The translations under genes were made by a program, and so were the position numbers. 60,349 nt of DNA from Acidimicrobiales bacterium (GTDB lineage Bacteria; Actinomycetota; Acidimicrobiia; Acidimicrobiales; SZUA-35), in assembly GCA_020629695.1 (NCBI GenBank), contig JAHDCV010000002.1, positions 37,895 to 98,243 on the forward strand. Reading direction: 5' to 3'. Below, piece by piece: positions 2,013 to 58,634 of the stretch; position 1 is the first letter of the stretch; each line of letters begins with the position of its first letter. Below the pieces are notes generated by a model. It made no database searches. It had not been told where the DNA came from and was given only the letters and a program-made list of their open reading frames with translations.

Positions 2013-2042
2013 GCGTTCGACCGCACATCTGACCGTCACCGG

Positions 2043-2067
2043 CATCGGCGCCCTCGGGGCGCCGATG
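2043..2067. terminator. bidirectional hairpin between convergent genes (10-bp perfect inverted repeat, 5-nt loop)
   Basis: CATCGGCGCC-ctcgg-GGCGCCGATG between the SDR stop (2012) and the crotonase stop (2080). No U-tract was checked. Confidence 0.5.
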
Positions 2068-2079
2068 TCGCGTCCGGCC

Positions 2080-2874: not shown

Positions 2875-2952
2875 GGCGCCGAGCTTGCCAAGCAGCGATC
2901 GGTCACACCAGACGCAGTGCACGAGACCGAGGACGTGCCCGGTGGAGTTAGC

Positions 2953-3498
2953 GTGGCCGGTGTGACCCGCCTCGGCTCGCTGTTCGCCCACTTCGAGCAG
3001 TTCGACCGGACCGTGGACGGCTGGTTCGACCCGGTCCGCGGCAACCCGACGTTCGATCGCGTCGCCTTCCTGGCCAGCGAACTCGCCGACCATTCCATGG
3101 CCTGGCACATCTCGAGTCTCGGCCGAGCGCTCGTGCAACCGTCGTTCGAGCGGGAAGCCGTGCGACTCGCCGTGGCACTCGGCGTCGAGTCCGCGCTGGT
3201 GAACGGGGTGATGAAGCCACTCATCGATCGCCCGAGACCGGATGGCTGGGAGGATGTCGCTCCCGATGTCCGCCGGCCGAAGACCGCGAGCTTCCCGTCG
3301 GGCCACTCCTCCTCCGCCGCCCTCAACGCGATGTTGATGACGGCGGCGCCGCCGCCGCTCCGCCCGCTGTGGTGGGGCGTCACGGGACTGGTCGCCGCTT
3401 CGCGGATCTACAACCGGATGCATCACCCCTCCGACGTGGTCGTCGGACTCGCGATCGGCGTCGGACTCGGCCGTCTCGCCCGACGACTGCCGTCCTGA
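2953..3498 (+). CDS. PAP2-family phosphatase (short form)
   Basis: The three PAP2 motifs are present: KPLIDRPRP, PSGHS and SRIYNRMHHPSDV. The start is a GTG at 2953 or 2962. The upstream part of the 477-aa ORF lies antisense to the crotonase and is judged spurious. Confidence 0.65.
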   Translation: MAGVTRLGSLFAHFEQFDRTVDGWFDPVRGNPTFDRVAFLASELADHSMAWHISSLGRALVQPSFEREAVRLAVALGVESALVNGVMKPLIDRPRPDGWEDVAPDVRRPKTASFPSGHSSSAALNAMLMTAAPPPLRPLWWGVTGLVAASRIYNRMHHPSDVVVGLAIGVGLGRLARRLPS

Positions 3499-9907: not shown

Positions 9908-10096
9908 ATGAACACCGCACAGCTCCAGCTCGTTCCCGGGACCGCCTCCTCCCCGTGGCGCCTGAGCCACGAGACCCGCCGGATCGGTCGGGCCGGCATC
10001 GCCGAAGCCCGCGCCGCCCTCGCCGCCCGGGAGGTCGCCACGGCCCCCGAGGTCGACGAGTCCACCGACCTGCCCACCCTGCCGTTCGCCGCATGA
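9908..10096 (+). CDS. small hypothetical protein (62 aa)
   Basis: Begins MNTAQLQLVPGTASSPWRL in the intergenic space upstream of the thiolase. No homology recognised; could be non-coding. Confidence 0.2.
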   Translation: MNTAQLQLVPGTASSPWRLSHETRRIGRAGIAEARAALAAREVATAPEVDESTDLPTLPFAA

Positions 10097-10240
10097 GCGA
10101 CGTCCCCGGTCCGCCCTCGATCGACCGCGTTCGCCCGGCCGACGGCCTCTGCTCGGCCCGCAGGGGGCGCCCACGATCCGCACGGACCTCCATCGTCCCG
10201 GTTTTGCGCCCGTCGCTCGCCGGATGATCGACTTCGCGTC

Positions 10241-11419
10241 ATGACCGAGATCGTGATCATCGATGCCGTCCGCTCCCCCATCGGAAAGCGCAACGGCGGC
10301 CTGTCGTCCATGCATCCCGCCGAGCTCCTCTCCGCCGTGTTGCAGGGACTCGTCGAACGCACCGGGATCGATCCGGGCGAGGTCGGCCAGATCGTGACCG
10401 GCTGCGTCTCGCAGGTCGGCGAACAGTCCTTCAACATCGGCCGGACGGCCTGGCTGAGCGCCGGCTTCCCCCTCGAGGTGCCCGCCACCACCGTCGACAC
10501 GCAGTGCGGCAGCTCGCAGCAGGCGACCAACCTGGCTGCCGCGCTCGTCGGCTCCGGCGTGGTCGACGTCGCCATCGCCTGTGGCGTCGAGACGATGAGC
10601 CGGGTGCCGATCGGGTCCAACTCCTCGAAGAAGCTGGGATTGGGTGGGCCGATCCCGCCGACCTACTCCGATCATTACGAGATGACGAGCCAGTTCGAGG
10701 GGGCCGAGCGGATCGCCGACCACTGGGAGATCTCACGGGACGACACCGACGCGTTCGGACTTCGCTCGCAGGAACTCGCGGCACAGGCGTGGGCCGAGGA
10801 CCGCTTCGCCACCCAGATCGTGCCGATCGACGCCCCCGTCCTCGACGACGACGGCCAGCCCACCGGCGAGACCCGCCGCGTCGTTCGAGACGAGGGCCTG
10901 CGGGACACGAGCCTCGAGGGGCTGAGCAACCTGAAGCCGGTCGCCCGGCCCGATGGGGTCCACACCGCCGGATCGGCGTCGCAGATCTCCGACGGTGCCG
11001 CAGCGGTGTTGATGATGACGGCTGTGGCGGCCGAGCGGCTCGGTCTCACACCGATGGCGGCGATCGTGGACACGTGCCTCGTCGGGGTCGACCCCGAGTT
11101 CATGCTGACCGGACCGATCGATGCCACGAAGCACCTGCTCGATCGAAACCAGCTCTCCATCTCCGACATCGACGTGTTCGAGATCAACGAGGCCTTCGCA
11201 TCGGTCGTCCTGGCCTGGCAGAAGGAGCTCGGCCCCGACGCCGACGCGGTCAACCCGAACGGCGGCGCGATCGCGCTCGGCCACCCACTCGGGGGCACCG
11301 GTGCGTTCCTCATGACCAAGGCCGTGCACGAGCTCGCACGGACCGGAGCGAATCGAGGCCTGGTCTCGATGTGCTGCGGCGGCGGCATCGGGACCGGCAC
11401 GATCGTCGAGCGACGCTGA
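10241..11419 (+). CDS. fadA: acetyl-CoA C-acyltransferase (thiolase II / FadA-like)
   Basis: 392 aa. Active-site Cys region VDTQCGSSQQA, and the C-terminal catalytic NPNGGAIALGHPLGGTG / CCGGGIG motifs. Confidence 0.9.
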   Translation: MTEIVIIDAVRSPIGKRNGGLSSMHPAELLSAVLQGLVERTGIDPGEVGQIVTGCVSQVGEQSFNIGRTAWLSAGFPLEVPATTVDTQCGSSQQATNLAAALVGSGVVDVAIACGVETMSRVPIGSNSSKKLGLGGPIPPTYSDHYEMTSQFEGAERIADHWEISRDDTDAFGLRSQELAAQAWAEDRFATQIVPIDAPVLDDDGQPTGETRRVVRDEGLRDTSLEGLSNLKPVARPDGVHTAGSASQISDGAAAVLMMTAVAAERLGLTPMAAIVDTCLVGVDPEFMLTGPIDATKHLLDRNQLSISDIDVFEINEAFASVVLAWQKELGPDADAVNPNGGAIALGHPLGGTGAFLMTKAVHELARTGANRGLVSMCCGGGIGTGTIVERR

Positions 11420-11952
11420 CCCCGAACCGCACCGTCGTCGCGCTCGGCCTGATCGCCGCAGGCTGCACCCCGTTCGCCACCTCGACCCAATCCGACTCGG
11501 CGACGGTGTTCGCCGAGGTGGAGCACGTTGTCGACGGCGACACGGTCGACCTCCTCTTCGAAGACCCCACGGGAGTGATCGAGGAGCGGGTCCGGTTGAT
11601 CGGCATCGATGCGCCCGAGTCCGTCTCGCGCTCCGACCCCCAGCAGTGCTTCGGCTCCGAAGCATCCGACGCACTCACGGGCCTGTTGCCGGTCGGCAGT
11701 CAGGTCATCGTCATCCGAGACCGCGAGGCCCGCGACCGATTCGGTCGCCTGCTCGCCTACCTGGAGCGAACCGACGGCCTCGACGTCAACCTCTGGCTCA
11801 TCGAGCAGGGCTTCGCCGACGCACTGTTCTTCGAACCGAACACGAGCCGCCGGGGCGAGTTCACCGAGGCGGCGGAGACCGCACGCTCCGAGGGTCGGGG
11901 GCTCTGGGGTGTCTGTGATGGCCCGGACCAGCCGCTCGACCCTGGCGGATAA
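11371..11952 (+). CDS. thermonuclease (SNase/micrococcal nuclease-like) lipoprotein
   Basis: GTG at 11371 overlaps the thiolase 3' end by about 50 nt. Arg-rich n-region, then VVALGLIAAGC (lipobox AAGC). SNase motifs are present (DGDTVDL, RLIGIDAPE, GRGLWG). Confidence 0.7.
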   Translation: MLRRRHRDRHDRRATLTPNRTVVALGLIAAGCTPFATSTQSDSATVFAEVEHVVDGDTVDLLFEDPTGVIEERVRLIGIDAPESVSRSDPQQCFGSEASDALTGLLPVGSQVIVIRDREARDRFGRLLAYLERTDGLDVNLWLIEQGFADALFFEPNTSRRGEFTEAAETARSEGRGLWGVCDGPDQPLDPGG

Positions 11953-11961
11953 CTTGGTCGG

Positions 11962-12789
11962 GTGAGCCTTCTGAACCGCCTCGGGCTGGACGACGACGCC
12001 CGGGCGCTGATCATCACATGTGTCGGGCTCGGGACGATGCACGCGGCGAACGTCGCCGTCGAGGAGGCGTTGCGGGACGGGCTGGCCACCGATGCGACCC
12101 TGCACGTGCCGGGCCCCTGGGCGCGCGGTGCGATCTCGATCTGGAAGGACCGCCCCATCGGTGTCGGGCTGACCCTCAACGCGGAGTTCGATCACGTCCG
12201 ATGGGGACCGATCACGGTGGCACCGACGCTGCTCGACGGCGATGGCGGGTTCCCACGCACCGTCACGGACCTGTGGGAACACGCCGACACCGACGAGGTC
12301 CGGCGGGAGTGCCGGGCCCAGCTCGAACGGGCGATCGGTTGGGGCGTCGACGTCACCCATCTCGACGGGCACCTCCTCGCGCTCCACGGGCGGCCGGAGA
12401 TGTTCGACGTTCTGCTCGACCTCGCGGTGGAGTTCGCGCTCCCGATCTCCATGCCGGCCGACGACCTCGATCTCGGGTTCCCCGCGCGGGACCTGGCCGC
12501 CGACGAGGGCATCGTGATGGCCGACCACACGGTGCGCTGGCGAGCCGGTGTGGAGTCGCGCGAGGCCGTCATCGCAGCCCTCACCGATCTCCCGGCCGGC
12601 GTCACCGAACTCCAGGTACGTCCGACGGCCGACACCCCCGAACACCGGGCCATGACGCCGACGTGGCCGGCAGGAGTGGGCGACGCCCACCTCGTCACAC
12701 ACGACTGGGGTGTGCGCGCCGCGCTGCATCGCAGCGGCGCGGTCACGACCGGATTCGCGGCGCTCCGCTCGCTCCAGCGAGCGGACTGA
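11962..12789 (+). CDS. YdjC/ChbG-like carbohydrate deacetylase family protein (tentative)
   Basis: His/Asp-rich segments THLDGHLLALHGRP and HVRW. The family call is from memory of PF04794 motifs and is not firm. Confidence 0.4.
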   Translation: MSLLNRLGLDDDARALIITCVGLGTMHAANVAVEEALRDGLATDATLHVPGPWARGAISIWKDRPIGVGLTLNAEFDHVRWGPITVAPTLLDGDGGFPRTVTDLWEHADTDEVRRECRAQLERAIGWGVDVTHLDGHLLALHGRPEMFDVLLDLAVEFALPISMPADDLDLGFPARDLAADEGIVMADHTVRWRAGVESREAVIAALTDLPAGVTELQVRPTADTPEHRAMTPTWPAGVGDAHLVTHDWGVRAALHRSGAVTTGFAALRSLQRAD

Positions 12790-12798
12790 CCGTCCGGA

Positions 12799-13152
12799 TC
12801 AGCCTTCGGCCGCCAGGGCGCTGGCCAGCGCCGATCGTGTGTCCTCGCGTTCGAGGACGTGGAACAGCGCGGCCGCGGCCCGAACGGATCCCTCCGGCTT
12901 GAGATCGCCTCGCATGTAGTCCTGGGAGGGTGTGCCGGTGCCGTCGGCCAGCGCGGCGAGCTGCGTCGGTGAGAACGTCACCGACACGGTGGGCTCACCG
13001 GCGGGTTCGACGTCGACCACCTGTCCGCCGATGATCTGGATCGTGCTCGTCGATCCCGACGCCGTGATCTCGGCGACCGCGTCGAGGCCGTCGATCGGGT
13101 CGGGTGCACCGCCGGCGAACCGGGCTGCCGCGGCGATCGCTGCACCGCTCAC
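12799..13152 (-). CDS. SCP2 sterol-carrier-like domain protein
   Basis: 117 aa; the Gly/Ala-rich MSGAAIAAAARFAGG.. segment and the C-terminal helix are typical of the SCP2 fold. It overlaps the mca stop by 4 nt (an operon). Confidence 0.6.
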   Translation of the reverse strand: MSGAAIAAAARFAGGAPDPIDGLDAVAEITASGSTSTIQIIGGQVVDVEPAGEPTVSVTFSPTQLAALADGTGTPSQDYMRGDLKPEGSVRAAAALFHVLEREDTRSALASALAAEG

Positions 13153-14021
13153 GCGACACCCGCCAGGATGTCGGTCTCAGGGCGACGGACGGGGACCCGC
13201 GACCGGGCGAGGATGTAGTCGTCATACGGATAGGCCGATGCGGCGACGTCGTCCGGCAGCCCGAACCAGAACTTCTCGTTCGGGTCGCACTGGGTCGCAT
13301 GGGCGAGCAACGCCTGGGTCCTGGCCGAGTAGAACGGGCCGATGTCGACCGTGGTGGTGATCCGATGGTCCATACCCGGGCGCTCGAACCACCGCTCGTC
13401 GTAGGGCGACTCCACCCCGATCGCGGAGAACGCCTCGTGGTGGGCGAGCATCCGGCGACGGGCCCACATCATGTAATAGAGCTTCGCCGGGGCGTAGGGC
13501 TCGCCGGCGTCGGGGTACCAGTTCGGGTCACCGGCCCGCAGCCATGCCGGCACGCTGATGTCGTGCACCTTCAGGTGGTCGGGGTGGCGGTAGCCCTGCT
13601 GATCGTCGGCATAGGTGATGATCACGTCGGCCCGATGCGACCGGATCAGGCGAACGAGTCGTTCGACGGCTTCGTCGAGCGGGGCGTTCTGGAAGTTCGT
13701 CGGATCGGCGTTGGCCTCCATGTCGGGCATACCGGAATCCCGGTACCCGAGCATCTCGAGCGAGGTGTAGCCGATCGCTGCCACCGAGGCGTCGAGCTCG
13801 GCGGCGCGCACGGCCGGCAGGTCGGCCTCGACCTCGGGGCGCTTCATCGCCTCGTTGAGGATGTCGCCCTCCTCCCCCCCGGTGCAGCACACGAGCACGG
13901 CCTGATGACCCTCGGCGACATAGCGGGCGATCGTCGGCGCCCCCTTCGAGGCCTCGTCGTCGGGGTGGGCGTGCACGGTGAGGATCGTTGCCACGGACGT
14001 GACGATATCGGCGACCTTCAT
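13149..14021 (-). CDS. mca: mycothiol S-conjugate amidase (LmbE/PIG-L family; Mca-like rather than MshB)
   Basis: Starts MKVADIV... The HAHPDDE motif is present. Recalled Mca sequence matches closely along the length, including the C-terminus (ARSRVPVRRPETDILAGVA vs ARARVPVTLPEDDLFKGVE). The upstream 37 codons of the ORF-track ORF are judged read-through. Confidence 0.8.
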   Translation of the reverse strand: MKVADIVTSVATILTVHAHPDDEASKGAPTIARYVAEGHQAVLVCCTGGEEGDILNEAMKRPEVEADLPAVRAAELDASVAAIGYTSLEMLGYRDSGMPDMEANADPTNFQNAPLDEAVERLVRLIRSHRADVIITYADDQQGYRHPDHLKVHDISVPAWLRAGDPNWYPDAGEPYAPAKLYYMMWARRRMLAHHEAFSAIGVESPYDERWFERPGMDHRITTTVDIGPFYSARTQALLAHATQCDPNEKFWFGLPDDVAASAYPYDDYILARSRVPVRRPETDILAGVA

Positions 14022-14109
14022 CCGGCCTTCGAACCGCCGATGGGAACGACGAAGTTCGTGGGAACCCGGACAGCAGGGCCGACGTTTGAGATGCTGTCGG
14101 AACGTCGCT

Positions 14110-14127
14110 CGACAGATCCGACAGATC
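14110..14127. repeat. perfect 9-bp tandem direct repeat (CGACAGATC x2) in the mca / nfeD divergent promoter region
   Basis: An adjacent 6-bp inverted repeat CTGTCG-N10-CGACAG lies at about 14094-14115. Confidence 0.5.
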
Positions 14128-14152
14128 GCCACCCCTCAGGAGACACCAGACC

Positions 14153-14599
14153 ATGGACGACGGCATCGTGTTCGCCATCATCTTCGTCGGCCTCGCCGCC
14201 ACCCTCGGCATCGGCGAACTGCTGCTCACCGGGACGTTCTTCCTCCTCCCCTTCGCCGTCGGCGCGCTGCTCGCCGCCTTCGCGTCGCTGGTCTCCCCCT
14301 GGCTCGGGATCGCCGTGTTCCTCGTCGGCTCCGCCGCCGCCTTCTTCGCCCTGAAGCCGCTCGCCCGACGACTCGACGACTCGACGCCGAACCCCAGTGG
14401 CGTCGGGGCCAACCGCCTCGTCGGCGAGGCCGGCGTGGTCCTCGAGCAGATTCCGGGTGGACCGAGTCAGACCGGGCTGGTGCGGATCGGCCGAGAGAAG
14501 TGGCGCGCGGAGTCCTCCAGCGACGCCGGCATCGGCGTCGGCCAGAACGTCAGCGTGCTCGAAGTCGTCGGCACCAGGGTCATCGTGGAAACCCGATGA
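14153..14599 (+). CDS. NfeD-family membrane protein (OB-fold C-terminus), partner of the SPFH protein
   Basis: 148 aa; two to three TM helices, then a beta-rich C-terminal domain (GEAGVVLEQI..GLVRIGREKWRA). Immediately upstream of the SPFH gene. Confidence 0.7.
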   Translation: MDDGIVFAIIFVGLAATLGIGELLLTGTFFLLPFAVGALLAAFASLVSPWLGIAVFLVGSAAAFFALKPLARRLDDSTPNPSGVGANRLVGEAGVVLEQIPGGPSQTGLVRIGREKWRAESSSDAGIGVGQNVSVLEVVGTRVIVETR

Positions 14600-14648
14600 C
14601 CACACCTGCTCGCACCGCTCGCCCATTCCCCCAACCAGGAGGTCTCCT

Positions 14649-15767
14649 GTGCCGTTCCTGATCGGCTTACTGGCCGTCATCATCATCTTCGCCCTGGTCT
14701 ACGCCGCGGCCGGCATCCGGATCGTCCGCCCGTACCAGCGGGGCGTCATCGAGTACCTCGGCAAGTACAAGGAGACCGCGGACCCCGGCCTGCGGATCAT
14801 TCTCCCGTTCGTGCAACGCATGCGGATGGTCGACATGCGGGAGCAGGTCATCGACGTGCCCCCGCAGGAGGTCATCACCCAGGACAACGTCGCCGTCTCG
14901 GTCGACGCGGTCATCTACTTCGAGCCGACCGACCCCCAGCGCCTCATCTACAACGTGTCGAACTTCATCCTCGCCGTCACGAAGCTCGCGCAGACCAACC
15001 TGCGGAACGTGGTCGGCGAGATGTCGCTCGACGAGGCGTTCACGTCCCGCGAGCGGGTCAACGCCGCACTCCGCCAGATCCTCGACGACGCCACCGACAA
15101 GTGGGGTGTCCGGGTCGTTCGTGTCGAGATCCAGCGCATCGACCCACCGCAGGACGTCATGAACGCCATGCACGAGCAGATGAAGGCCGAGCGGACCCGA
15201 CGAGCCGTCGTGACCGAAGCCGAAGGTGCTCGTCAGGCGGCGATCACCCGTGCCGACGGCGAGAAGCAGGCCGCCATCCTCGAAGCAGAGGGTGTCCGCC
15301 AGCGCGACATCCTCACGGCCGAAGGTGAGGCACAGGCCGTGCGGACCCGGGCCGAAGCCGAACAGTTCCGCCTGGAGGTCGAAGCCCAGGGTGAGGCCCA
15401 CGCCCTCGAGAGCGTCTTCGGGGCCATCGACGAATCCGGTGTCGACGACCGCTTCCTGGCCCTGCGTTACATGGACGCGCTGGAGGGCATCGCCGACGGG
15501 AAGGCGACGAAGATCTTCCTCCCCGCCGACATGTCGAACACGATGGGCGCACTCGGCGGGATCGCCGAACTCTTCCGACCCGATCCCGATGACGACAACC
15601 CGACACCGGCACCCCGGATCCGAGCCGACGCCGCTCGTCGCGCCGAGACCGCGAAAGCGGCGGCCGAGCTCGAGGGGCGACCTCAACCGCAGCGTCGCCC
15701 GGCACCGAACCCGGCCCCGGCGCCCGGAGGCACCACCCCGCCACCTCCACGACGGGCGGGCGCGTAG
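14649..15767 (+). CDS. SPFH/band-7 (stomatin-like) protein
   Basis: GTG start preceded by AGGAGG. An N-terminal TM helix, then an SPFH core (IRIVRPYQRGVIEYLGKY...VDMREQV...TQDNV). Ala/Glu-rich coiled coil and a Pro-rich tail. Confidence 0.85.
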   Translation: MPFLIGLLAVIIIFALVYAAAGIRIVRPYQRGVIEYLGKYKETADPGLRIILPFVQRMRMVDMREQVIDVPPQEVITQDNVAVSVDAVIYFEPTDPQRLIYNVSNFILAVTKLAQTNLRNVVGEMSLDEAFTSRERVNAALRQILDDATDKWGVRVVRVEIQRIDPPQDVMNAMHEQMKAERTRRAVVTEAEGARQAAITRADGEKQAAILEAEGVRQRDILTAEGEAQAVRTRAEAEQFRLEVEAQGEAHALESVFGAIDESGVDDRFLALRYMDALEGIADGKATKIFLPADMSNTMGALGGIAELFRPDPDDDNPTPAPRIRADAARRAETAKAAAELEGRPQPQRRPAPNPAPAPGGTTPPPPRRAGA

Positions 15768-40998: not shown

Positions 40999-42165
40999 AT
41001 GCAGAACACGCATCGGCTTCCGCAAGTCCTGCTCGTCGCTCTGGCGTCGCTGGCCCTGATCCTCGGCTTCGCGCCCACCGCCGGATCACAGACCCTGATC
41101 GACTCGGGCACCTCGACCGACCCGACCGTGCTCCCCCCGGAGCCGAACTGCGGCGACCCCATCGACGTGTCGGTGCTCACCGGCGACGAGGCGAACTCAC
41201 TCTCCCCGCCCCGCTTCGGCATCGGCGGCGGCATGGTCCCGACCGCCGAGGTCGCCGTCGACCTGCCCGCTGGCCGCTATCGCATCGAGTCCGTGACCGT
41301 GGATCGCTACGACATCCGGGCGACGACCGGCCTCCAGGCCAACGAGCAGGTGCGGCTGCGCTTCTTCTCCGGAGCCACCGAGCAGGACGTGACGCCCTAC
41401 ACCGTCGACCTGATCGATGGTTTCGAAGCGGCCTGGGCCATCACGGACCTGGGTGTGGTGGATCTGGCCGACGGAGCCGACCGCATCGTCGTCGAGCACT
41501 ACGGCCACAACAACGCCATCAACTCCCCCGACTCGCTGAAGGTCTCGTCGATCTGTGCGCTTCTCGAGGAGCCCGCGCCGACGACGACCACCACCGACCC
41601 GTGCGCTGACGACGACGGCGACGACGACGGCATCCCGGCCGCCAACGACATCGACGACCCCTGCGGCCCCTGCACCGACGGCGACAACGACGGCATCACC
41701 GCCGACAACGACATCGACGACCCCTGCGGCCCGTGTGCTGACGGCGACGGCGACGATGACGGCATCCCGGCCGCCAACGACATCGACGACCCCTGCGGCC
41801 CCTGCACCGACGGCGACAACGACGGCATCACCGCCGACAACGATGCCGACGACCCCTGCGGTTCGACGACGACGACCCAGCCGACGACCACGACGACCGA
41901 AGCCCCGACGACCACGACGACGCCGCCGCCGACCGTGGCCCCGACGACGGTCATCCGCACCTCGACGACCGCTCCGGCGACCACCACGACCGCAGGCGAC
42001 ACCGAGACGACCCCGACCGCTTCGGTGCTCGGCGTCCAGCAGGATCGTGATGATCTCGCCGTGACCGGTTCGAGCACGCTCCGTCTCGTGTGGATCGGTT
42101 CGCTGGCCACCGCCGTCGGTGTCCTGCTCATCGCCTTTGCGGTGCGTCGACGCGAGTTCGGCTGA
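40999..42165 (+). CDS. cell-wall-anchored surface protein: signal peptide, TSP3-like Ca-binding repeats, Thr/Pro linker, LAXTG sortase (class E) sorting signal
   Basis: N-terminal signal peptide. 4 repeats of D.DDPCGPCTDGDNDGI.ADND. A TTTTEAPTTTTTPPPT linker. C-terminal LAVTG plus a hydrophobic helix and an RRREFG tail. Confidence 0.7.
   Translation: MQNTHRLPQVLLVALASLALILGFAPTAGSQTLIDSGTSTDPTVLPPEPNCGDPIDVSVLTGDEANSLSPPRFGIGGGMVPTAEVAVDLPAGRYRIESVTVDRYDIRATTGLQANEQVRLRFFSGATEQDVTPYTVDLIDGFEAAWAITDLGVVDLADGADRIVVEHYGHNNAINSPDSLKVSSICALLEEPAPTTTTTDPCADDDGDDDGIPAANDIDDPCGPCTDGDNDGITADNDIDDPCGPCADGDGDDDGIPAANDIDDPCGPCTDGDNDGITADNDADDPCGSTTTTQPTTTTTEAPTTTTTPPPTVAPTTVIRTSTTAPATTTTAGDTETTPTASVLGVQQDRDDLAVTGSSTLRLVWIGSLATAVGVLLIAFAVRRREFG
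41605..41865. repeat. about 120-bp tandem repeat (about 2 copies; about 60-bp sub-units) encoding the TSP3-like repeats
   Basis: gacgacggcatcccggccgccaacgacatcgacgacccctgcggcccctgcaccgacggcgacaacgacggcatcaccgccgacaacga... recurs. Confidence 0.7.
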
Positions 42166-49952: not shown

Positions 49953-50534
49953 ATGCTGTCTTTCAACGGCTCGACACCGACCCTCTACGGACTCGACGTC
50001 CTCGCACTGACCGATGCCGATCCGGTCGACCCCGAGCGGGCGCGGATCCGCACGATCGGCATCGCGACCGACGCCGGAGCCGTCAGCTTCTCCGGTGACG
50101 AGGCGACGGTCCTCTCCGACACCGTCGACTTCCTCCGCACGAGCGAGGCGGGCTGCATCGTGACCTGGCGAGGCTCGTCGCTCGTGCTGCCCCTTCTGGT
50201 GGCCAGGGCCGAGATCATCGGCCTCGACCTCGGTCTGCGCTGCACCGAGGACCGACGGGGGGCGCAGGTCGACGTCGCCGGGTTCGACCAGCCACTGCTC
50301 GCCACCTGGCTGCAGCACCAGCATCTCGACCTCAAGCGGTTCTACGACCAGCGAGCCATCGGTGAGCCGGAACAGGAGCCCGACACCGACGAGTTCTGCG
50401 ACCGGGACCCGGCCAACACCGCCGGATTGCTGCGTTCCATGGCACGGCGACGGTGGGACCGCGCTCGGCGGTCCGTCGATCCGACCGGGCATCCGTCCTC
50501 ACCGTCGTTTTCCGATGAGGTCATGACTCGATAG
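49953..50534 (+). CDS. hypothetical protein (possible RNase-H-like/DEDD exonuclease fold)
   Basis: GLDVLALTDADP...IRTIGIA resembles an exo-I motif; weak. Confidence 0.3.
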   Translation: MLSFNGSTPTLYGLDVLALTDADPVDPERARIRTIGIATDAGAVSFSGDEATVLSDTVDFLRTSEAGCIVTWRGSSLVLPLLVARAEIIGLDLGLRCTEDRRGAQVDVAGFDQPLLATWLQHQHLDLKRFYDQRAIGEPEQEPDTDEFCDRDPANTAGLLRSMARRRWDRARRSVDPTGHPSSPSFSDEVMTR

Positions 50535-50545
50535 TCTCGGCCGCC

Positions 50546-50968
50546 GTGCAGTTGGAGCTCGGCCCGATCGATGCCAGGGACATGGAACGTTGGACCCGCT
50601 TCGCGCGGCGCGTGCTCCTGGAGGTCCGGACCGACGTCGATCACGACGCCGTGATCGACGTCGACGTGCTCGATGGTTGGGCTCGCCTCATCGACTCGTG
50701 GCAGCGCACGGCCGCCGCGAGCACGACGACCTTCCGGTGGACCGAACAGCTCGACTGCGACCAGGGTGAGTACCTCCTCCACGGCCTCATCCGAGGCCTC
50801 GGTGGACAGGATCTCGGCGAGCTCGTGACGCTCGAGGACGTCGCTGATCAGGCCGTGGTGACCCGCCACGTCCTCGGGTGCTTCCTCGACGCGATGTGCG
50901 ACGAGAACGACGCGGCCGCGGCCTTCACCGAGGATCTGCGCCACCGCTATCTCAGCAACGCGACCTGA
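50546..50968 (+). CDS. hypothetical protein, 140 aa
   Basis: GTG start; acidic; no domain recognised. Confidence 0.3.
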   Translation: MQLELGPIDARDMERWTRFARRVLLEVRTDVDHDAVIDVDVLDGWARLIDSWQRTAAASTTTFRWTEQLDCDQGEYLLHGLIRGLGGQDLGELVTLEDVADQAVVTRHVLGCFLDAMCDENDAAAAFTEDLRHRYLSNAT

Positions 50969-50977
50969 GCCGCTCCC

Positions 50978-53900
50978 TCAGCGTTCACGATCGAGCGCAT
51001 CGGCGATCCGTCCGAGCGCGGCGACCGCATCGCTCGCCGGATCGCGGCCCGCACTCGCCCATCGGGATCGGATGGCATCCCACCGCGCGATCTGGTCGGG
51101 GTCGAGGCGATCCCGCATGGCGCCGAGCGCGAGGAGGTTCTGTTCGGCGCGATCGGTGAGCGTCTGAGCCTCGGACTGATAGTGGTCGTGCACCACCGCA
51201 TCGAGCTCCTCCGGCCGCATCGCGGCGACGACTCGCGAGGCGATCCGAGCCATGTTGCGGTAGGAGCCCTGCAGGAGGAACGGCGGAGCGACCCGGTCGG
51301 CGTCGTTCATCGCCGCCGAGGCCACATAGGCCGCATTCACGGCCATGACCGTCTCCTGGGCCCGGTCGAGCAGTCCGATGAGTCGCACGACCTGGGCGAG
51401 ATCGGCGCCGTCCCACCGGTGAGCGAGGCCGTCGCTCGAGGTCGCACGGCGACCGCGGGCCATGGCGAGCACCGCCTCGACGTCGTCGACGAGCCTCGCG
51501 GCGAACGGCGCGAGATCGGCGCACGCGGTCACGGAGTTCTCGAGGTACGACAGCGCGAAGTCGTCGGCGTGTTCGTCGGCGACGTCGCCGAGATTGTGCA
51601 CATCGGCTCGGTTCACGAGCATGTCGGGCAGATCGAACCGGACACCGCCGGTCGAGTACGGGTTGCCCGCCATGACCACGGCGAAGCGGCGCCCCCGCAG
51701 GTCGTGGGTGACGGCCTCACCGTCGACCACTCCTTCGATGCGTCGGGTCGCATCGGCCAACGGGATGAACCGGGAGAGCAGTTCGGGTGAGGTGAACTGG
51801 ATGTCGTCGATGAACAGCATCACGTTCCGGCCCATCCGCAGCGCGAGATTGATCTTCTCGACCTCGGCTCGGGCCGCGGCGTCGGGTGCATCCGCGGGAT
51901 CCAGTGAGGTCGTACCGGTGCCGAGCGCGGGCCCGTTGACCTTGACCATCAACATGCCGAGCCGGTCGGCGAGCCAGGCCATGAGCGTGGTCTTGCCGTA
52001 ACCGGGAGGCGATGTGAGCACCAGCACGCCGCTGCGGGCCTGCTCGGCTCCGTCGACCGTGCCGATCTGACGGGCGAGGTTGGCACCGATCAACGGCAGC
52101 AGCGCACGATCGATCAGTCGATTCCTCACGAATCCGGCCATCACCTGGGGACGATGACCGTCGAGATCGAGCGCCGCCCGAGCGTCGGCCACCACGGCAC
52201 GTCGCGCCGCCTGGTAGGCCGGCCACCGGAGCGCCATCCGTTCGAATCGTCCTCCGACTCGATCCGCCAGTTCGTCGAAGCGGACGGCGAGCACACCGTC
52301 GCTGATCCGCCGGTGACCGCTCACCAGGCCGTCGACGAGCACGGTGCCACGGTGGGCGACGACCTCGCTCCCGACGTGGGGAGCGGCGAGCACCGCGGCG
52401 GCCTCGTCCACGTCGAACGCCGCGGCGCCGAGCGCTGCGTGGGTCTCGATCGCGCCGTCGAGCCAGGAGCGGGCGACCCCGATCCGGTCGTGGAGATCGG
52501 GCGCCGCATCGAGCGCCGTCCGGAAGGCGGCCCAACCATCGGTCCCGAGTGCGTCTTCGGTCTGGCGCAGGAGGTCGTCGACGGTGGAGGGCAGGCTGAG
52601 CCGGCCCGGCGATCGACCGAGATCGTCGAGCAACACGGCCACACCGGCCACGGCGTCGAGACCCGACGGAATCTCGGCACCGTCGATGAGCTCCCGTGCC
52701 AGTCCCTCCAGACCGGCGCGGACTCCGACGTGTTCGGCTGCCGCCCGACCGGCCCGGGCGCGCCGCTCCGCGGCTTCGAGTCGTTCCGGCGACCACTCGG
52801 CGACGAGGAGGCGAGCGGCGGCTCGGGCGGAGCCCGCATGGGTCAGCACGGGATCGTCGGCTCCGTGTCCCGACAGTGCGGCGAGGATCCTCACGGCGTC
52901 GTGATCGTGGACGCCGATCTCGTAACCCTCCCCGTGTCGGTGCTCGGCGACGCGGCGGACCGTGACCTGCAGCTCGTCGGGTGACGCGGCCAACGACGCG
53001 ATCGATCGGCCTCCGGCTCGGAGTTCGGCGACGACCGCCCATGCGAGGAACTCGGCACGAGCGACCTCGGCGTCCTCCGACGGATGGCTTCTGTCGAGCA
53101 GATCGGCGAAGTCCCCGAGCGCGTCGGTCACGTCGAGCGAGAACTCCGTTCCCGTCACCACGGCGTCGATCCGGCCGGAACCGGCCGGCGCGAGGACGAG
53201 CTCGAAGGGCTGATGGTTGGGTGCGAAGCGGAAGCCGCCGAACACGACCGAACCGTCGTCGGCCACCAGGTCGGCCGTGTCCCGGACCCGACGTCGCGCC
53301 TCCTCGGCGGACGAGATCAACTCGTTGCGGACCTCGGCCGCTCGACCCGTCTCGCCGAGCTCCTCCAGCTCGTCGGCCAGTCCGCGGACCCGGGCCACCA
53401 TCTGATCCGCGGCGAAGAAGCCAGCGATCTCGGCGTCGTCGGCTGCTTCGGAAGCTCGACGGACCACCGTCGCCAGCAGTCGCCGGGCGGCGTCCACGAG
53501 TCGCTGCGTCCTGCGGGCCCGTTCGTCGACGAGTTCGGACCGCCGGGCCCCGAAGGTCTCGTTGAGACGGACGCGCAGCTCGATCAGCCGGTCGAGTCGG
53601 TCCGGGTCCTCGCCGTAGCGGGTCTCGATCCGCTCGAGATTCACCAGAAGCCGTGCGAGCTCCGCATCGACGGCCTCGGGCGTGTCGACGCCGCTGACTG
53701 CGCCACGCATCGATTGCTCGAGCAGGGCGAACTCGGCGTCGAACGCCTCGTCGGATTCCGCCGACCGCAATGAGCCCCGACGCGTCTCGAGCTGGGCCCG
53801 CACCCGGTTCGACTGAGCCGTGACATCGGCGATCCGCCGGACGATCCGCGTTCGTGCCGTCGGTTCCCCGGCGTCGAGCGACGAGACCGCGTCCACGACG

Positions 53901-55810
53901 GCGTCGAGATCGCCCGTGACCTCGACGATCCGCTCGAGTACCGCATCGACCGACGACGCGTCCGGTGCGGCGAGTCCGTCCGTCGACAGCTGATCGAGCC
54001 GCGAGGCGAAGCCGGCGAACGCGGCGTCGTCGTCCAGGATCGAGGCCGCCCGCTCCGCGAGCGAGACCATCGCCGCGTCGAGATCACCGAGGAGACGGGC
54101 GACGCCGTCGTCGTCGATCTCGGCGACGTCGGTCAACAGGCTCGCTTCGCCCCGCTGCCGGCGGAGCGCTCCGAGAGCACCGACCACCTCGGTCGGATCC
54201 GTCGCCCGGTCGGCGTCGTCCACGGCCCGGGCGGCGCTCCGTCGCGCGTCGGCCAACCGCGACTCGGCCTCGGCGCGCTGTCGGCGGACCTTCACGTACT
54301 CGTCGACGAGCAACCCGGCGGTGTCGACGATCTCACGCAGGCCGTCGTGCAACGCACTGGCTTCGGGATCGGCCAACCAGAGGTGCGTGTCGAGCGCACG
54401 ACGAGCCGCGACGATGATCGCCTCCCAGGTGCGCTCCGACGGATCGGCATCGTCCACGAGTTGGCCGACGTCGTAGGCGTCGGCCAGTCCGGCGACGAGG
54501 TCGGCGTTGCCGACCCGGGTGATCCACGGATCACCGTCCTCGGCGACCGGCTCGCGATGATCCGGATCGACGAACGGCGTCTCCCACCACTGGATGGGAT
54601 GAACTCGGGCCGGGTCGGCGTCGGTGGGCGCGGCCCGGAAGAGCACCATCCGACCGTCCGAGAACAACGTGAAGCCGTGGCACGGGATGATCTGGGCGAT
54701 CTCGCGCCGCACGCGGTTGTAGGGCGCCAGCAGATAGTCGCCGTTCTCACGATGATGGAAGACGTACAGGAGGTCCTCACCATTCGGAGCGGCGACCAGC
54801 TCCTCGAAGACCATGCCGTCGGTGTCGACATCGAAGAGCCGGGTTCCGGTCGTGGCGAGGTGGTAGCCGCCGGGGAACACGACCCCGTCGCCGCCGGGCA
54901 GTGTCCGTGCCGCCTGACCGAGTGCGTCGACACGGGTACCACGTCGGGTGCGACGGCCGAAGAGATAGTGGCGCGCCGGCTCGGCGTACAGCTCGACCCG
55001 GATCGCGAGCTCCTCGCCGACCTCGGCCGAGGCGACCCCGACGTCGGCGAGCGACTGACCGGGCACCTCGACCGGCTCGTCGAGCTCGACACGACCGCCC
55101 GGTGTGCCGTCCTCGACACGCAACTGGAGTCGCCCTCCGCGGAATCCGACGAAGACCTCGTCGAGCACCGACACCGTCGGGTGAGCGCCCGCTCGCTGAT
55201 CCTCCCGGGTCGCGGCGACCCACCGGAGATCGTGGGTCTCCGGCCAGGCGTAGTCACGCTCCCCTCGACTGTCCAGGAACGTGACCTCATCGTCGGCCGA
55301 GACCGTCCAGCGGAGCACCACGAGATCGTCGAGTCGCTCGCCGATCCGGAAGGCGGCGAGGATCTGGGTCGCGGTGCGACGGAGATCGGCGAATCGGGCC
55401 TTCCCGTAGAACTTGTGGAGCTTCTCGAACGCGGTGCGGAACTCGGGATCGGCGAGGAAGTTCCGAGGGTCGTCACCGGCCAGGGGCGCCAGTTCGTCGC
55501 CGTCGTGTGGTTCGTAGAGAGCGAAGACGTGCTCGGGCGCGACCTCGGCCAGCTCGGGCGTCGCCAGGTACCCCAGGAGGAGCAGCTCACCGACGCGGAT
55601 CATGTCGCGCGGGCGGCAGGCGAGATCGGTCCGGAGACGATCCGACGACGCGAGCCGGACCGGACGGCGCCCGAATCGTTCCGTACGTCGATCATCGAGC
55701 GCCGCGGCCGCGTCGACCGTCTCACGGACGGTCGTGCGGAGTCGACGGCGGAGCAGGTCGTAGGACCCGCCAGCGGGCGCTCCGTCGGATGACGGCTCGG
55801 TGTCAGTCAA
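50978..55810 (-). CDS. giant (1610 aa) flotillin-operon protein: novel N-terminal about 1100 aa with coiled-coil stretches, plus C-terminal AAA_5/MoxR-type ATPase
   Basis: TTG start 9 nt after the flotillin stop. The C-terminal domain has a Walker A VLVLTSPPGYGKTTLMAWLADRLG, a Walker B NVMLFIDDIQ, and a sensor FAVVMAGNPYS. The N-terminal region has no recognisable motifs. The alternative-strand ORFs here are low-complexity Arg/Pro artefacts. Confidence 0.7.
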   Translation of the reverse strand: MTDTEPSSDGAPAGGSYDLLRRRLRTTVRETVDAAAALDDRRTERFGRRPVRLASSDRLRTDLACRPRDMIRVGELLLLGYLATPELAEVAPEHVFALYEPHDGDELAPLAGDDPRNFLADPEFRTAFEKLHKFYGKARFADLRRTATQILAAFRIGERLDDLVVLRWTVSADDEVTFLDSRGERDYAWPETHDLRWVAATREDQRAGAHPTVSVLDEVFVGFRGGRLQLRVEDGTPGGRVELDEPVEVPGQSLADVGVASAEVGEELAIRVELYAEPARHYLFGRRTRRGTRVDALGQAARTLPGGDGVVFPGGYHLATTGTRLFDVDTDGMVFEELVAAPNGEDLLYVFHHRENGDYLLAPYNRVRREIAQIIPCHGFTLFSDGRMVLFRAAPTDADPARVHPIQWWETPFVDPDHREPVAEDGDPWITRVGNADLVAGLADAYDVGQLVDDADPSERTWEAIIVAARRALDTHLWLADPEASALHDGLREIVDTAGLLVDEYVKVRRQRAEAESRLADARRSAARAVDDADRATDPTEVVGALGALRRQRGEASLLTDVAEIDDDGVARLLGDLDAAMVSLAERAASILDDDAAFAGFASRLDQLSTDGLAAPDASSVDAVLERIVEVTGDLDAVVDAVSSLDAGEPTARTRIVRRIADVTAQSNRVRAQLETRRGSLRSAESDEAFDAEFALLEQSMRGAVSGVDTPEAVDAELARLLVNLERIETRYGEDPDRLDRLIELRVRLNETFGARRSELVDERARRTQRLVDAARRLLATVVRRASEAADDAEIAGFFAADQMVARVRGLADELEELGETGRAAEVRNELISSAEEARRRVRDTADLVADDGSVVFGGFRFAPNHQPFELVLAPAGSGRIDAVVTGTEFSLDVTDALGDFADLLDRSHPSEDAEVARAEFLAWAVVAELRAGGRSIASLAASPDELQVTVRRVAEHRHGEGYEIGVHDHDAVRILAALSGHGADDPVLTHAGSARAAARLLVAEWSPERLEAAERRARAGRAAAEHVGVRAGLEGLARELIDGAEIPSGLDAVAGVAVLLDDLGRSPGRLSLPSTVDDLLRQTEDALGTDGWAAFRTALDAAPDLHDRIGVARSWLDGAIETHAALGAAAFDVDEAAAVLAAPHVGSEVVAHRGTVLVDGLVSGHRRISDGVLAVRFDELADRVGGRFERMALRWPAYQAARRAVVADARAALDLDGHRPQVMAGFVRNRLIDRALLPLIGANLARQIGTVDGAEQARSGVLVLTSPPGYGKTTLMAWLADRLGMLMVKVNGPALGTGTTSLDPADAPDAAARAEVEKINLALRMGRNVMLFIDDIQFTSPELLSRFIPLADATRRIEGVVDGEAVTHDLRGRRFAVVMAGNPYSTGGVRFDLPDMLVNRADVHNLGDVADEHADDFALSYLENSVTACADLAPFAARLVDDVEAVLAMARGRRATSSDGLAHRWDGADLAQVVRLIGLLDRAQETVMAVNAAYVASAAMNDADRVAPPFLLQGSYRNMARIASRVVAAMRPEELDAVVHDHYQSEAQTLTDRAEQNLLALGAMRDRLDPDQIARWDAIRSRWASAGRDPASDAVAALGRIADALDRER

Positions 55811-55818
55811 CGGAGGCC

Positions 55819-57846
55819 TCAGCCCTGGTCACCGTCGAGCAAGTCACGCACCGACGCCTCACCCAGCCCACCCGATGCCACGGCGTCTCGCAGGCGTTCC
55901 ACGAGATCACCACCACCGAGACGACCACCGAGCCGATTGACCAGATCGGCCACGGTCAGGTCGCGGATGCCGGCGGCGCCGATGCCGCCGATGCCGTCGG
56001 CGACGTCGCTGACCAGATTCGCCTCGCCCTCGAGGTACGGCGACAACATGCGCCGACCGGCGGCACTCGAGTTCACGAACCCGTCGATCGCCTGACCGTG
56101 CCCCGCCGCCGACAGGATGCGCTCGACGATGCCCTCGTCCGAGACGATCTGCACGTCGGCGTTCGACAAGGATTCGCCGAGGGCACTGGCGGCCGACTTG
56201 GCGACTTCGGCTCGGGCGCCGATCGCGGCGAGCTCGATCTCACGATCGGTGTCGAGTCGGAGGCGGAACTCCTCGTGCTCCTGGCCGGCGGCGGTCATCG
56301 CCCCGACACCTTCCGACTTCGCCTTGAGGCCCGCACCCTCGCCCTCGAGCCTCGAACGGGTCGCATCACCCTCGGCGACACCCAGTTCACGCACCGCTTC
56401 GGCATCGGCTCGCTTGACCTCGACCTCGGCGAGCCCGGTCGCCCGGATCGCATCGGCCCGCTCGCGTTCGACCTGGACCGCAGCGAGCCCGTCGGCTGCA
56501 GCGACGGCCTGGGAACCCTCGGCCCGCCGCTTGTTCGCCTGCATCTCCTGGGCGGCGGCGTCGGCCTCGGCCCGGGCCAGCGTCGTGAGTCGCTCGGCTT
56601 CGGCACCGGCGGCCTGCTTGTCCGCGTCGGCTTCCTTCACTCGGGCGATGAAGGCGGCCTCCGCCTGCCCTTCTGCGCTCTTGACCTCGGCCTCGGCTTG
56701 CCGCTGTGCCTCCTCGACGACGCGCAGCGTCGCGATCTCCTCTTCCTTCTCGGCCACACCGAGCTCGGCTTCGACCCTGCCCCGGCTGAGTTCGGCGAGC
56801 TCCCGCTCGGTGGCTTCCTTGTCCTTCGCCGCCTCGGCGACCGCGGTGTCCCGACCGATCTCGGCCAGGGCCCGATCCCGCTCGATCTCCTCGGTCTGCA
56901 CGGCGATCACGCGCTGGCGGTTCGCATCGGCGAGAGCGATCTCCCGGTCCTTGTTCTGATCGGCCACGCCGACGTTCTGTTCGGTCGAGATCCGGGCCTC
57001 CTCGGCCACACGAACCGCTTCGGCCTCGGCAGCGCGGGCTTCGGCCTCGGCGCGGGCCTTGACCGTGCGGATCTCCTGCTGCTGCCGGGCCTCGGCCTCG
57101 GCACGGTCGCGGTCCATCTCGAACACGGCCTTGTCCGCATCGGTCGTGCGGCGGGTGGTCTCCTCGCGCTCACGCTCCTGGGCGTCATTGGTCCGGATGT
57201 GCTGGTCGGCGGTTCGTTCCGTGATCTTCCGGATGCCGTCGGCGTCGAGGATGTTCTGCGGATCGAGCGCCTCGATCGGCGTCTGCTCGAGATAGTCGAT
57301 GGCGACGTCCTCGAGGACGTAGCCGTTGAGGTCCTGGCCGATGATTCCGATGATCACGTCCTTGAACTGCTGGCGGCTCGTGTAGAGGTCCTCGAAGTCG
57401 AATTCCTTGCCGGCCGACTTCAGTGCCTCGGAGAACTTCGCGGCGAACAGCTCCCGCAGCGTGTTCTGGTCGGACGCCCGGTCGACACCGACCTGTTGCG
57501 CGACCCGGATGACCGCCTCCTCGGTCTTGTCGACCTTCACGTAGAACTCGACGGCGATGTCGGCTCGGACGTTGTCCTTGCAGACGAGCCCGTCCTTGCC
57601 GCGGCGATCGACCTGGATGTTCTTGACCGAGATGTCCATGACCTCGGCTTTGTGGATCACGGGGATCACGATCTGACCGGTGAAGGTCACCACCACCGCC
57701 TTCCACTTGGACACGACGAGCGCCTGGCCCTGGGGGACCTTGCGGAAGAGGCGAGTCACGAGCAGCCCGAGTGCGATCAGCACGACCGCCGAGATTCCGA
57801 TCACCGTGAGCGCTGCGGCGAGAACACCGTTCATGTCAGATGCCAT
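55819..57846 (-). CDS. flotillin-family SPFH protein (FloT/YuaG-like), about 675 aa
   Basis: N-terminal TM VLAAALTVIGISAVVLIALGLLV, then an SPFH core (VPQGQALVVSK...VIPVIHKAEVMDISVKNIQV). A very long Ala/Glu-rich flotillin coiled coil (EA-repeats) and a C-terminal flotillin tail. Confidence 0.85.
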   Translation of the reverse strand: MASDMNGVLAAALTVIGISAVVLIALGLLVTRLFRKVPQGQALVVSKWKAVVVTFTGQIVIPVIHKAEVMDISVKNIQVDRRGKDGLVCKDNVRADIAVEFYVKVDKTEEAVIRVAQQVGVDRASDQNTLRELFAAKFSEALKSAGKEFDFEDLYTSRQQFKDVIIGIIGQDLNGYVLEDVAIDYLEQTPIEALDPQNILDADGIRKITERTADQHIRTNDAQEREREETTRRTTDADKAVFEMDRDRAEAEARQQQEIRTVKARAEAEARAAEAEAVRVAEEARISTEQNVGVADQNKDREIALADANRQRVIAVQTEEIERDRALAEIGRDTAVAEAAKDKEATERELAELSRGRVEAELGVAEKEEEIATLRVVEEAQRQAEAEVKSAEGQAEAAFIARVKEADADKQAAGAEAERLTTLARAEADAAAQEMQANKRRAEGSQAVAAADGLAAVQVERERADAIRATGLAEVEVKRADAEAVRELGVAEGDATRSRLEGEGAGLKAKSEGVGAMTAAGQEHEEFRLRLDTDREIELAAIGARAEVAKSAASALGESLSNADVQIVSDEGIVERILSAAGHGQAIDGFVNSSAAGRRMLSPYLEGEANLVSDVADGIGGIGAAGIRDLTVADLVNRLGGRLGGGDLVERLRDAVASGGLGEASVRDLLDGDQG

Positions 57847-58519
57847 CCGTTTCTGTTGTGTCGAGATCTGGGGTCGCGTCCGCGCCGAAGAGATCGGCGT
57901 CCGGGGACACGAGGTAGACGCCACGGTCGGCGTCGTGGGAGAGGAGGCGGACGATCGCACCGGGGCCGATGCCGCTGAGGTCCGTGCCGTCGAGGGGTCG
58001 GATGTCGATCCGGGACCGGGACCCGTCGGGCCAGTCCGCGTCGGCGTAGCCGAAGTCGGCGTCGACACGACCGGAACGCACGACGGCCTCGCGACCGACG
58101 AGTTCAGCCGCCCGTGGGGCACGCGCCGTCTGCATGAGCCCGGCGAGGGGCCGACTCACCCGGACACCGAGCACCAGCCCGACGGCGAAGGCGACGACCA
58201 GCAACACGACGGCGGCGGCGATGGCCGCACCGCCACCGAGCGGATCGACGACGAGCATCACCCCGACGATGGCGACGAACCATCCGACCAGGCTCACGGC
58301 GGTGAGGAGGAACAGCGGTGGCACACCGGCCACCCCAGCTGACTCGAGCAGTCCTCCGGCCGCGCCGTCCGCACCGTCGACGTCCAGGTCCAGGTCGACA
58401 TCGAGATCGAGATCGACGAAGCCGATCAGACTGATCATCCAGAACACGAGGCAGACGGCGAGCGGGACGAAGAAGACCAGCACGACGGGATGGATGAAGG
58501 CGTTCCAGAACTCGGACAT
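57836..58519 (-). CDS. NfeD/YqiJ-like membrane protein (partner of flotillin)
   Basis: TM helices plus an acidic DLDLDVDLDLDVDG segment and a C-terminal OB-like region (GREAVVRSGRVDADFGYAD..GSRSRIDIRPL). Overlaps the flotillin start by about 11 nt. Confidence 0.6.
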   Translation of the reverse strand: MSEFWNAFIHPVVLVFFVPLAVCLVFWMISLIGFVDLDLDVDLDLDVDGADGAAGGLLESAGVAGVPPLFLLTAVSLVGWFVAIVGVMLVVDPLGGGAAIAAAVVLLVVAFAVGLVLGVRVSRPLAGLMQTARAPRAAELVGREAVVRSGRVDADFGYADADWPDGSRSRIDIRPLDGTDLSGIGPGAIVRLLSHDADRGVYLVSPDADLFGADATPDLDTTETDGI

Positions 58520-58634
58520 CCGTGGGCGATCGCTCCTGACGTGGACAGTTGGGATGCCAACGACTCGATCGTTCGTCTGGTTCCACCCCTGACGGAGAAA
58601 GTGTCCCAGTTTCCGGGGGCCAGCCCGCGGACGC

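Follow-up and report, generated by a model that had tools for sequence, protein, structure and literature searches.

A giant AAA+ ATPase and a flotillin in a conserved operon of an Acidimicrobiales bacterium, with a possible role in membrane maintenance

Why would a bacterium carry the gene for a 1610-residue AAA+ ATPase almost end to end with that of a flotillin, and what might the two products do together? The question is raised by three consecutive genes on the minus strand of a 60,349-nt stretch of DNA (G+C ~70%) from an Acidimicrobiales bacterium (contig JAHDCV010000002.1 of assembly GCA_020629695.1; hereafter the window, by which we mean the whole stretch). The genes encode a small membrane protein of putative YqiJ/NfeD type, an SPFH-family flotillin and the giant ATPase. 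They had been singled out earlier from the letters of the DNA and its open reading frames (ORFs) alone (the original prediction), which pictured an ATP-driven machine coupled to a flotillin and took it for an undescribed system. Most of the observation holds, and the coupling to flotillin is far better supported than the sequence by itself could tell. The claim of novelty has to be given up, as operons of this type, including the abbreviated three-gene form, were described as partners of PspA in the envelope-stress response by Ravi et al. (2024, mSystems; PMC11237479). The operon type is thus known from comparative genomics since 2024, and the ATPase falls in existing Pfam families.

Linkage of the giant ATPase gene to flotillin

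The evidence for the coupling comes from a gene-neighborhood census, for which one genome per GTDB species was scanned. At least 568 loci with a confirmed giant gene were obtained and the best 80 of them were examined, with flotillin being located by tblastn using the window flotillin and the YqiJ-like gene by an iterated hidden Markov model. A flotillin homolog was identified in 74 of the 80 loci, and the other six have no more than 113 nt upstream of the giant gene. Among the 74 loci with enough upstream DNA, flotillin lies directly upstream and on the same strand in 73, the exception being Myxococcales bacterium 68-20 (L079), in which flotillin (1479-3404) is situated 6.6 kb upstream of the ATPase gene (10001-14890). 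A YqiJ-like gene precedes flotillin in 64 of these 74 loci; of those without one, three are short of DNA upstream, and the rest are mostly from Streptomyces, in which the gene went undetected. The same arrangement is found in distant loci from a plasmid collection (32-37% identity; Pseudomonas pQBR103, Hymenobacter, Proteus, Vibrio, Deinococcus, and Halomonas), with flotillin directly upstream in all six and the YqiJ-like gene in five. The adjacency of ATPase and flotillin genes is near-obligate, the ATPase being co-inherited with a dedicated flotillin subfamily that is described below. Taken together, the loci of the 80-locus census and the six distant ones place the conserved module in at least six phyla: Actinomycetota, Myxococcota, Acidobacteriota, Pseudomonadota, Bacteroidota, and Deinococcota.

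Apart from flotillin and the YqiJ-like gene, an all-against-all clustering of the ORFs of 81 loci returned no family that recurs in over 19 of them, the clusters being partly polluted by off-frame ORFs from high-GC DNA. This result bears on one alternative, namely that the three genes constitute a membrane-associated anti-phage or conflict system in which the propeller-like domain of the giant protein senses an invader and its AAA+ part triggers a membrane effector built from flotillin and the YqiJ-like protein. Such a system would be consistent with the patchy spread of the module over the six phyla and with the location of some copies on megaplasmids or beside transposases, features that point to horizontal transfer. 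In addition, conflict systems often contain AAA_5/McrB-like motors and beta-propeller sensors. However, no nuclease, toxin, or recognizable effector is conserved nearby in the 81 clustered loci, and the other neighbors in the window are housekeeping genes (4HBT thioesterase, PurK, and HIT protein). Moreover, a scan of the three proteins against PADLOC-DB 2.0 (E ≤ 0.01) gave no match, and tblastn against 50,697 phage records gave no homolog. We consequently regard a defense function as very unlikely.

Domains and ATPase site of the giant protein

The original prediction recognized nothing in the first ~1100 residues of the giant protein, a statement that does not hold, because two Pfam families match there (positions of these and other features are in Table 1). 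The first is DUF3686 (E = 1.2e-132; 443 bits against a cut-off of 25), which bears the Pfam name "ATPase involved in DNA repair", and the second is DUF7902 (E = 2.7e-17; 63.2 bits against a cut-off of 26). Full-length homologs (38-77% identity, 1575-2159 residues) are common in Streptomyces, Micromonospora, Nocardia, and Myxococcales, and the best named relatives are Acidimicrobiia such as Ilumatobacter (53-54% identity). The N-terminal 520 residues had 524 matches (E ≤ 1e-3) among 1.84 billion representatives of clusters formed at 50% identity, and in nearly all of the matches listed the DUF3686-type domain is at or near the protein N-terminus. Hydropathy revealed no transmembrane (TM)-like segment in the giant protein, marking it as soluble. 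The stretch between residues 520 and 840 is probably helical or a coiled coil, as helices flank it in both structure models, the stretch itself being outside the models.

A splitting of the giant ORF in related genomes had been named beforehand as a sign that would speak against the original prediction, and one possible instance was found, on a metagenome contig from ENA (L088, 5706-17909) whose name suggests ~5x coverage. There, flotillin is followed by a gene call, P0177, in which an NfeD1b protease-like domain (NfeD1b_N) is joined to DUF3686/DUF7902, and the AAA+ part is a separate gene of 982 residues; a classical AAA protein (610 residues) is encoded downstream and an IS110 transposase upstream. 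As a "Rosetta stone" fusion P0177 was rejected, because the ~260 residues that link its two parts (~230-490) are Arg/Pro-rich and look like an off-frame read. In view of the low coverage as well, P0177 is a probable frameshift artifact.

The C-terminal region contains the motifs GYGKTT, LFIDDIQ, and AGNPYS, just as originally reported. Their assignment to AAA_5 was reasonable and stands in part: the generic AAA, AAA_22, and AAA_5 matches at residues 1260-1390 are weak and the AAA_5 score of the window protein (17.3 bits) is under the cut-off of 22, but two homologs, P0269 (27.7) and P0155 (25.2), exceed it. In the structure model of residues 840-1610 (predicted local distance difference test, pLDDT, 90.8), a small mixed domain and a long helical region are followed by an AAA+ core with its lid, and this core appears structurally nearest to members of the MoxR/dynein/midasin lineage. 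In Foldseek searches with the AAA+ model the lowest E-values were those of RuvB (~2e-6), CbbQ had 1e-5, and NorQ had the top target template modeling score (0.65). The model therefore suggests a core of the pre-sensor-1-hairpin group that is closest to the MoxR-type proteins CbbQ and NorQ, an assignment that is not clear-cut because RuvB ranks slightly above both by Foldseek E-value. The Walker A lysine, the Walker B Asp-Asp pair, the sensor-1 asparagine, and two candidate arginines (in NRAD and GSYRNM) are invariant in 37 homologs, and this invariance of the catalytic-site residues argues for the giant protein being an active ATPase.

The names given to the family in databases suggest a different role, as the NCBI product name of the homologs is "DNA repair ATPase", in keeping with the Pfam name of DUF3686. 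According to this explanation the protein would act in DNA repair and its adjacency to flotillin would be incidental. Besides these names, the similarity to RuvB in the Walker A region, which is weak, could be cited in its favor. However, a PDB sequence search with the giant protein as a single query gave no matches, and a family profile aligned over ~35 residues only, those surrounding Walker A. Pfam identified no nuclease, DNA-binding, protease, or MIT domain in the protein, and the literature yielded neither a mention of DUF3686 nor a link between flotillin and a "DNA repair ATPase". Furthermore, it is a membrane-scaffold gene that is near-obligately adjacent, and no conserved repair-gene neighbor was found. 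We consider a DNA repair function extremely improbable, and the database name, which appears to lack any experimental or contextual basis, is probably misleading.

Flotillin, its membrane partner, and the link to PspA

That the second gene encodes a flotillin with an EA-rich coiled coil was readily confirmed. The protein matches Pfam Band_7 (E = 1.4e-11) and Escherichia coli YqiK (29% identity over 438 residues, E = 8e-35), has a single N-terminal hydrophobic anchor by hydropathy, and its coiled coil is 25% Ala and 18% Glu. Its score for the NCBIfam FloT equivalog, 20.8 bits, falls far short of the cut-off of 700. When the ATPase-linked flotillins of the six phyla are compared with one another their normalized bit scores are 0.19-0.56, versus 0.07-0.15 against E. 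coli YqiK, and the low score against YqiK holds even for the flotillin of the enterobacterium Proteus. The window flotillin follows this pattern, with a normalized similarity of 0.10 to YqiK and 0.24-0.38 to other ATPase-linked flotillins. A C-terminal segment, HEEF[RK]L...IVGGDG...GK.VDG, is common to the ATPase-linked flotillins across the six phyla and cannot be aligned in YqiK. By these sequence comparisons the ATPase-linked flotillins are a separate subfamily, distinct from E. coli YqiK, and their subfamily-specific C-terminus could provide the ATPase with a place to dock. In a Mycobacterium chelonae double lysogen, the gene reported to be most strongly induced (99-fold) encodes a flotillin whose function is unknown (PMC8191103).

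The identity of the first gene product is less easily settled. The protein has ~3 hydrophobic segments by hydropathy, together with an acidic loop and, at the C-terminus, a beta-rich domain, yet it has no match in Pfam or NCBIfam, and among six of its orthologs Pfam failed to match five and gave a weak YqiJ_N hit (E = 0.15) for one. A profile of 12 orthologous sequences was, however, aligned by hhalign to E. coli YqiJ with a probability of 84.6% (E = 6.8e-6), and the Hymenobacter ortholog carries the NCBI annotation DUF1449. Because of the hydrophobic segments, the hhalign match, and the DUF1449 ortholog we consider the product, with moderate confidence, to be YqiJ/NfeD-like, as had been proposed; support for the YqiJ/YuaF type is only moderate since the protein itself has no direct Pfam match. 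The order of the first two genes also resembles that in E. coli (YqiJ-YqiK) and Bacillus subtilis (YuaF(NfeD2)-FloT), where a small multi-TM partner is likewise encoded immediately upstream of flotillin. In contrast to the window operon with its giant ATPase, yqiJK of E. coli lacks a third gene, and the window flotillin differs from YqiK in its subfamily and in having its own C-terminal segment.

Two of the distant loci show the module in a wider setting. On a plasmid of Hymenobacter sp. DG25B (L082, 1496-10809), genes for a CesT/Tir-type chaperone, PspA/IM30, a DUF1449 protein, a flotillin-like protein, and a "DNA repair ATPase" are arranged in a row; a LexA-family regulator is encoded divergently upstream and a LytTR/histidine-kinase pair downstream. 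On pQBR103 of Pseudomonas fluorescens SBW25 (L081, 92-11226), the module directly follows DUF2491, DUF350, DUF1190, and glutathionylspermidine-synthase-family genes, a set that resembles the yjfKLMC group of E. coli. This 425-kb environmental plasmid has an MvaT/MvaU-family gene after the module, on the opposite strand. Neither the window nor the 80 loci gave a tblastn match to the yjfKLMC-like proteins of pQBR103. Similarly, PspA and Tir queries from Hymenobacter gave no tblastn match in the 60-kb window or within 10 kb in the 80 loci, a search of low sensitivity because it relied on a single tblastn query and PspA is a coiled coil. As no PspA or Tir was detected, the window appears to carry an abbreviated three-gene form of the operon, without the CesT/Tir-PspA pair.

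Both forms are covered by the earlier work, which describes operons with or without CesT/Tir-PspA, finds the abbreviated ones to be widely distributed, and proposes that they act in the manner of chaperones or of ESCRT (Ravi et al., 2024; PMC11237479). The window operon agrees with that work in its three components and their domains: the band-7/flotillin protein, the beta-propeller AAA+ protein and, with moderate support, the 3TM YqiJ/YuaF protein. No CesT/Tir-PspA dyad was detected in it; quantified linkage, the AAA+ structural class, and experiments are not part of that paper (PMC11237479). The occurrence of PspA with band-7/FloT and NfeD in Acidobacteriota had been noted previously (Popp et al., 2022). 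We found no experimental work on the giant ATPase in the literature.

The PspA link raises the possibility that the true substrate of the ATPase is a polymer of the PspA/ESCRT-III type, which flotillin and the YqiJ-like protein would recruit to damaged membrane and the AAA+ part would recycle, as Vps4 does ESCRT-III. The analogy is a functional one, with an AAA+ protein recycling a membrane-bound polymeric scaffold, and some lineages provide the genomic link to PspA. In contrast to Vps4, however, the giant protein belongs to another AAA+ clade and has no Pfam MIT domain, and the partner that is conserved is flotillin. We judge this explanation to be unlikely.

Gene layout and proposed function

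The three ORFs are located as originally predicted (Table 1). With flotillin starting at the ATG at 57846, its gene and the end of the first one share 11 nt, as had been stated; with the alternative ATG at 57834 the two genes would instead be separated by 1 nt. The gap between the flotillin stop and the start of the giant gene had been given as 9 nt and measures 8 nt; the giant gene starts with TTG, and the GAGG in front of it overlaps the TGA stop of flotillin. The first gene starts with the ATG at 58519, just after an AGGAG, and the spacer upstream of it parts the operon from the 4HBT thioesterase gene. A consensus scan within the three genes detected neither promoter-like sites nor minus-strand terminator-like sites. 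These genes are a real, tightly spaced operon of a conserved type, the end of which appears to be at 50978 judging from the ORF layout alone. Two plus-strand ORFs of 193 and 140 residues (49953-50968), neither of which has a Pfam match, converge on this end.

Table 1. Coordinates of the operon and its features in the window.
Feature	Position	Strand	Basis
Gene 1, YqiJ/NfeD-like membrane protein (moderate confidence), 227 aa	57836-58519	minus	ORF and translation
Gene 2, flotillin, 675 aa	55819-57846	minus	ORF, Pfam Band_7
Gene 3, giant soluble ATPase, 1610 aa	50978-55810	minus	ORF, Pfam DUF3686 + DUF7902 + AAA+
DUF3686 region, aa 33-476: long N-terminal helix, beta-propeller-like domain, helical bundle	54383-55714	minus	
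DUF7902, aa 597-678, inside the aa 520-840 stretch	53777-54022	minus	Pfam
AAA+ core and lid, aa ~1231-1451	51458-52120	minus	
Walker A, GYGKTT, aa 1270-1275	51986-52003	minus	
Walker B, LFIDDIQ, aa 1332-1338	51797-51817	minus	
Sensor-1, AGNPYS, aa 1381-1386	51653-51670	minus	
Candidate Arg finger, NRAD	51602-51613	minus	
Subfamily-specific flotillin C-terminus, aa ~523-675	55819-56280	minus	conserved motif
Intergenic spacer upstream of gene 1, 115 nt, likely promoter region	58520-58634	minus	sequence
Motif like that of extracytoplasmic function (ECF) sigma factors, GGAAC-N17-CGTT	58559-58584	minus	in spacer upstream of gene 1

The ECF-sigma-like motif in the spacer occurs in four copies in the window, where ~1 is expected. 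As a conserved promoter of the operon it was rejected, since a copy precedes the first gene in just 2 of the 64 related loci, and as the promoter of this one operon it offers no more than a weak lead. Scans of the window for Rfam families and tRNA genes gave no matches. Elsewhere in the window, a plus-strand ORF of 388 residues (40999-42165), which has no Pfam match, encodes a signal-like N-terminus, a C-terminal hydrophobic anchor, Thr/Pro-rich linkers, and ~5 tandem acidic repeats (DDPCGPC[AT]DGD[ND]DGI[TP]A[AD]NDI). The product looks like a cell-surface protein, and because of its acidic repeats one might guess that it binds calcium.

What, then, might the operon do? We favor, with a fair degree of confidence, a module for maintenance of the membrane, its ATPase remodeling either the flotillin assemblies or the clients of these, alongside proteins of the PspA type. 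Its components would be a small integral membrane protein of the YqiJ/NfeD type, an SPFH flotillin scaffold anchored at the cytoplasmic face of the membrane, and a soluble ATPase in which an N-terminal beta-propeller, a helical bundle, and a long helical stalk precede a C-terminal AAA+ motor. The ATPase may oligomerize, by analogy with other AAA+ proteins, and its propeller and stalk would dock on the flotillin assembly, for which the subfamily-specific C-terminus of flotillin is the candidate site. ATP could then be used to assemble or disassemble the flotillin platform, or to load and unload its clients. Such remodeling would serve maintenance of the membrane or envelope together with PspA-type proteins encoded, depending on the lineage, in the same operon (as in Hymenobacter) or elsewhere. 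A more specific version, in which flotillin cages have in the giant protein their dedicated factor for ATP-driven assembly or disassembly, with the propeller and stalk gripping the flotillin C-terminus and a MoxR-like ring performing the remodeling, is one that we can put forward only tentatively and consider doubtful.

There is precedent for pairing an SPFH scaffold with a dedicated AAA+ machine, in that HflK/C forms a cage around the AAA+ protease FtsH at the membrane. FtsH differs in being membrane-anchored, of the classical clade, and equipped with a protease domain, whereas the window ATPase is soluble, MoxR/RuvB-like, and has no protease domain. The MoxR-type remodelers that work with adaptor partners, CbbQ-CbbO and NorQ-NorD, provide a second comparison, from which the window ATPase differs in its AAA_5 score, in the residues of its Walker B motif, in its lack of a VWA partner, and in the fusion of its motor to ~1200 residues of propeller, stalk, and helical domains.

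Several observations weigh against the membrane-maintenance module that we favor. MoxR ATPases normally act with a VWA partner, and the absence of one, both among the conserved neighbors of the 81 loci and among the Pfam matches of the three proteins, counts against a remodeler of this type for that reason. The Walker B motif has Asp-Asp rather than Asp-Glu, and to this is added the slight lead of RuvB in the Foldseek E-values. The failure to detect PspA and Tir in or near the examined loci, by a search of low sensitivity, is unfavorable to a role with PspA, and with the ECF-like motif so scarce stress regulation is at most a possibility. Finally, the census describes a part of the family, namely the best 80 of the at least 568 confirmed loci together with seven others.

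With the discovery of the operon type published in 2024, the value of the present analysis lies in confirmation, quantification, and structural classification: it adds the adjacency to flotillin in nearly all loci, the MoxR-like fold class of the motor, and the dedicated flotillin subfamily. The role of bacterial flotillins and the control of their assemblies are still debated, and both could be approached experimentally through this large AAA+ motor, which a flotillin subfamily of its own accompanies in six phyla. If the more specific version, that of a dedicated factor for flotillin cages, is correct, the giant protein would be the first regulator of a bacterial flotillin known to depend on energy, and would stand to flotillin as Vps4 stands to ESCRT-III.

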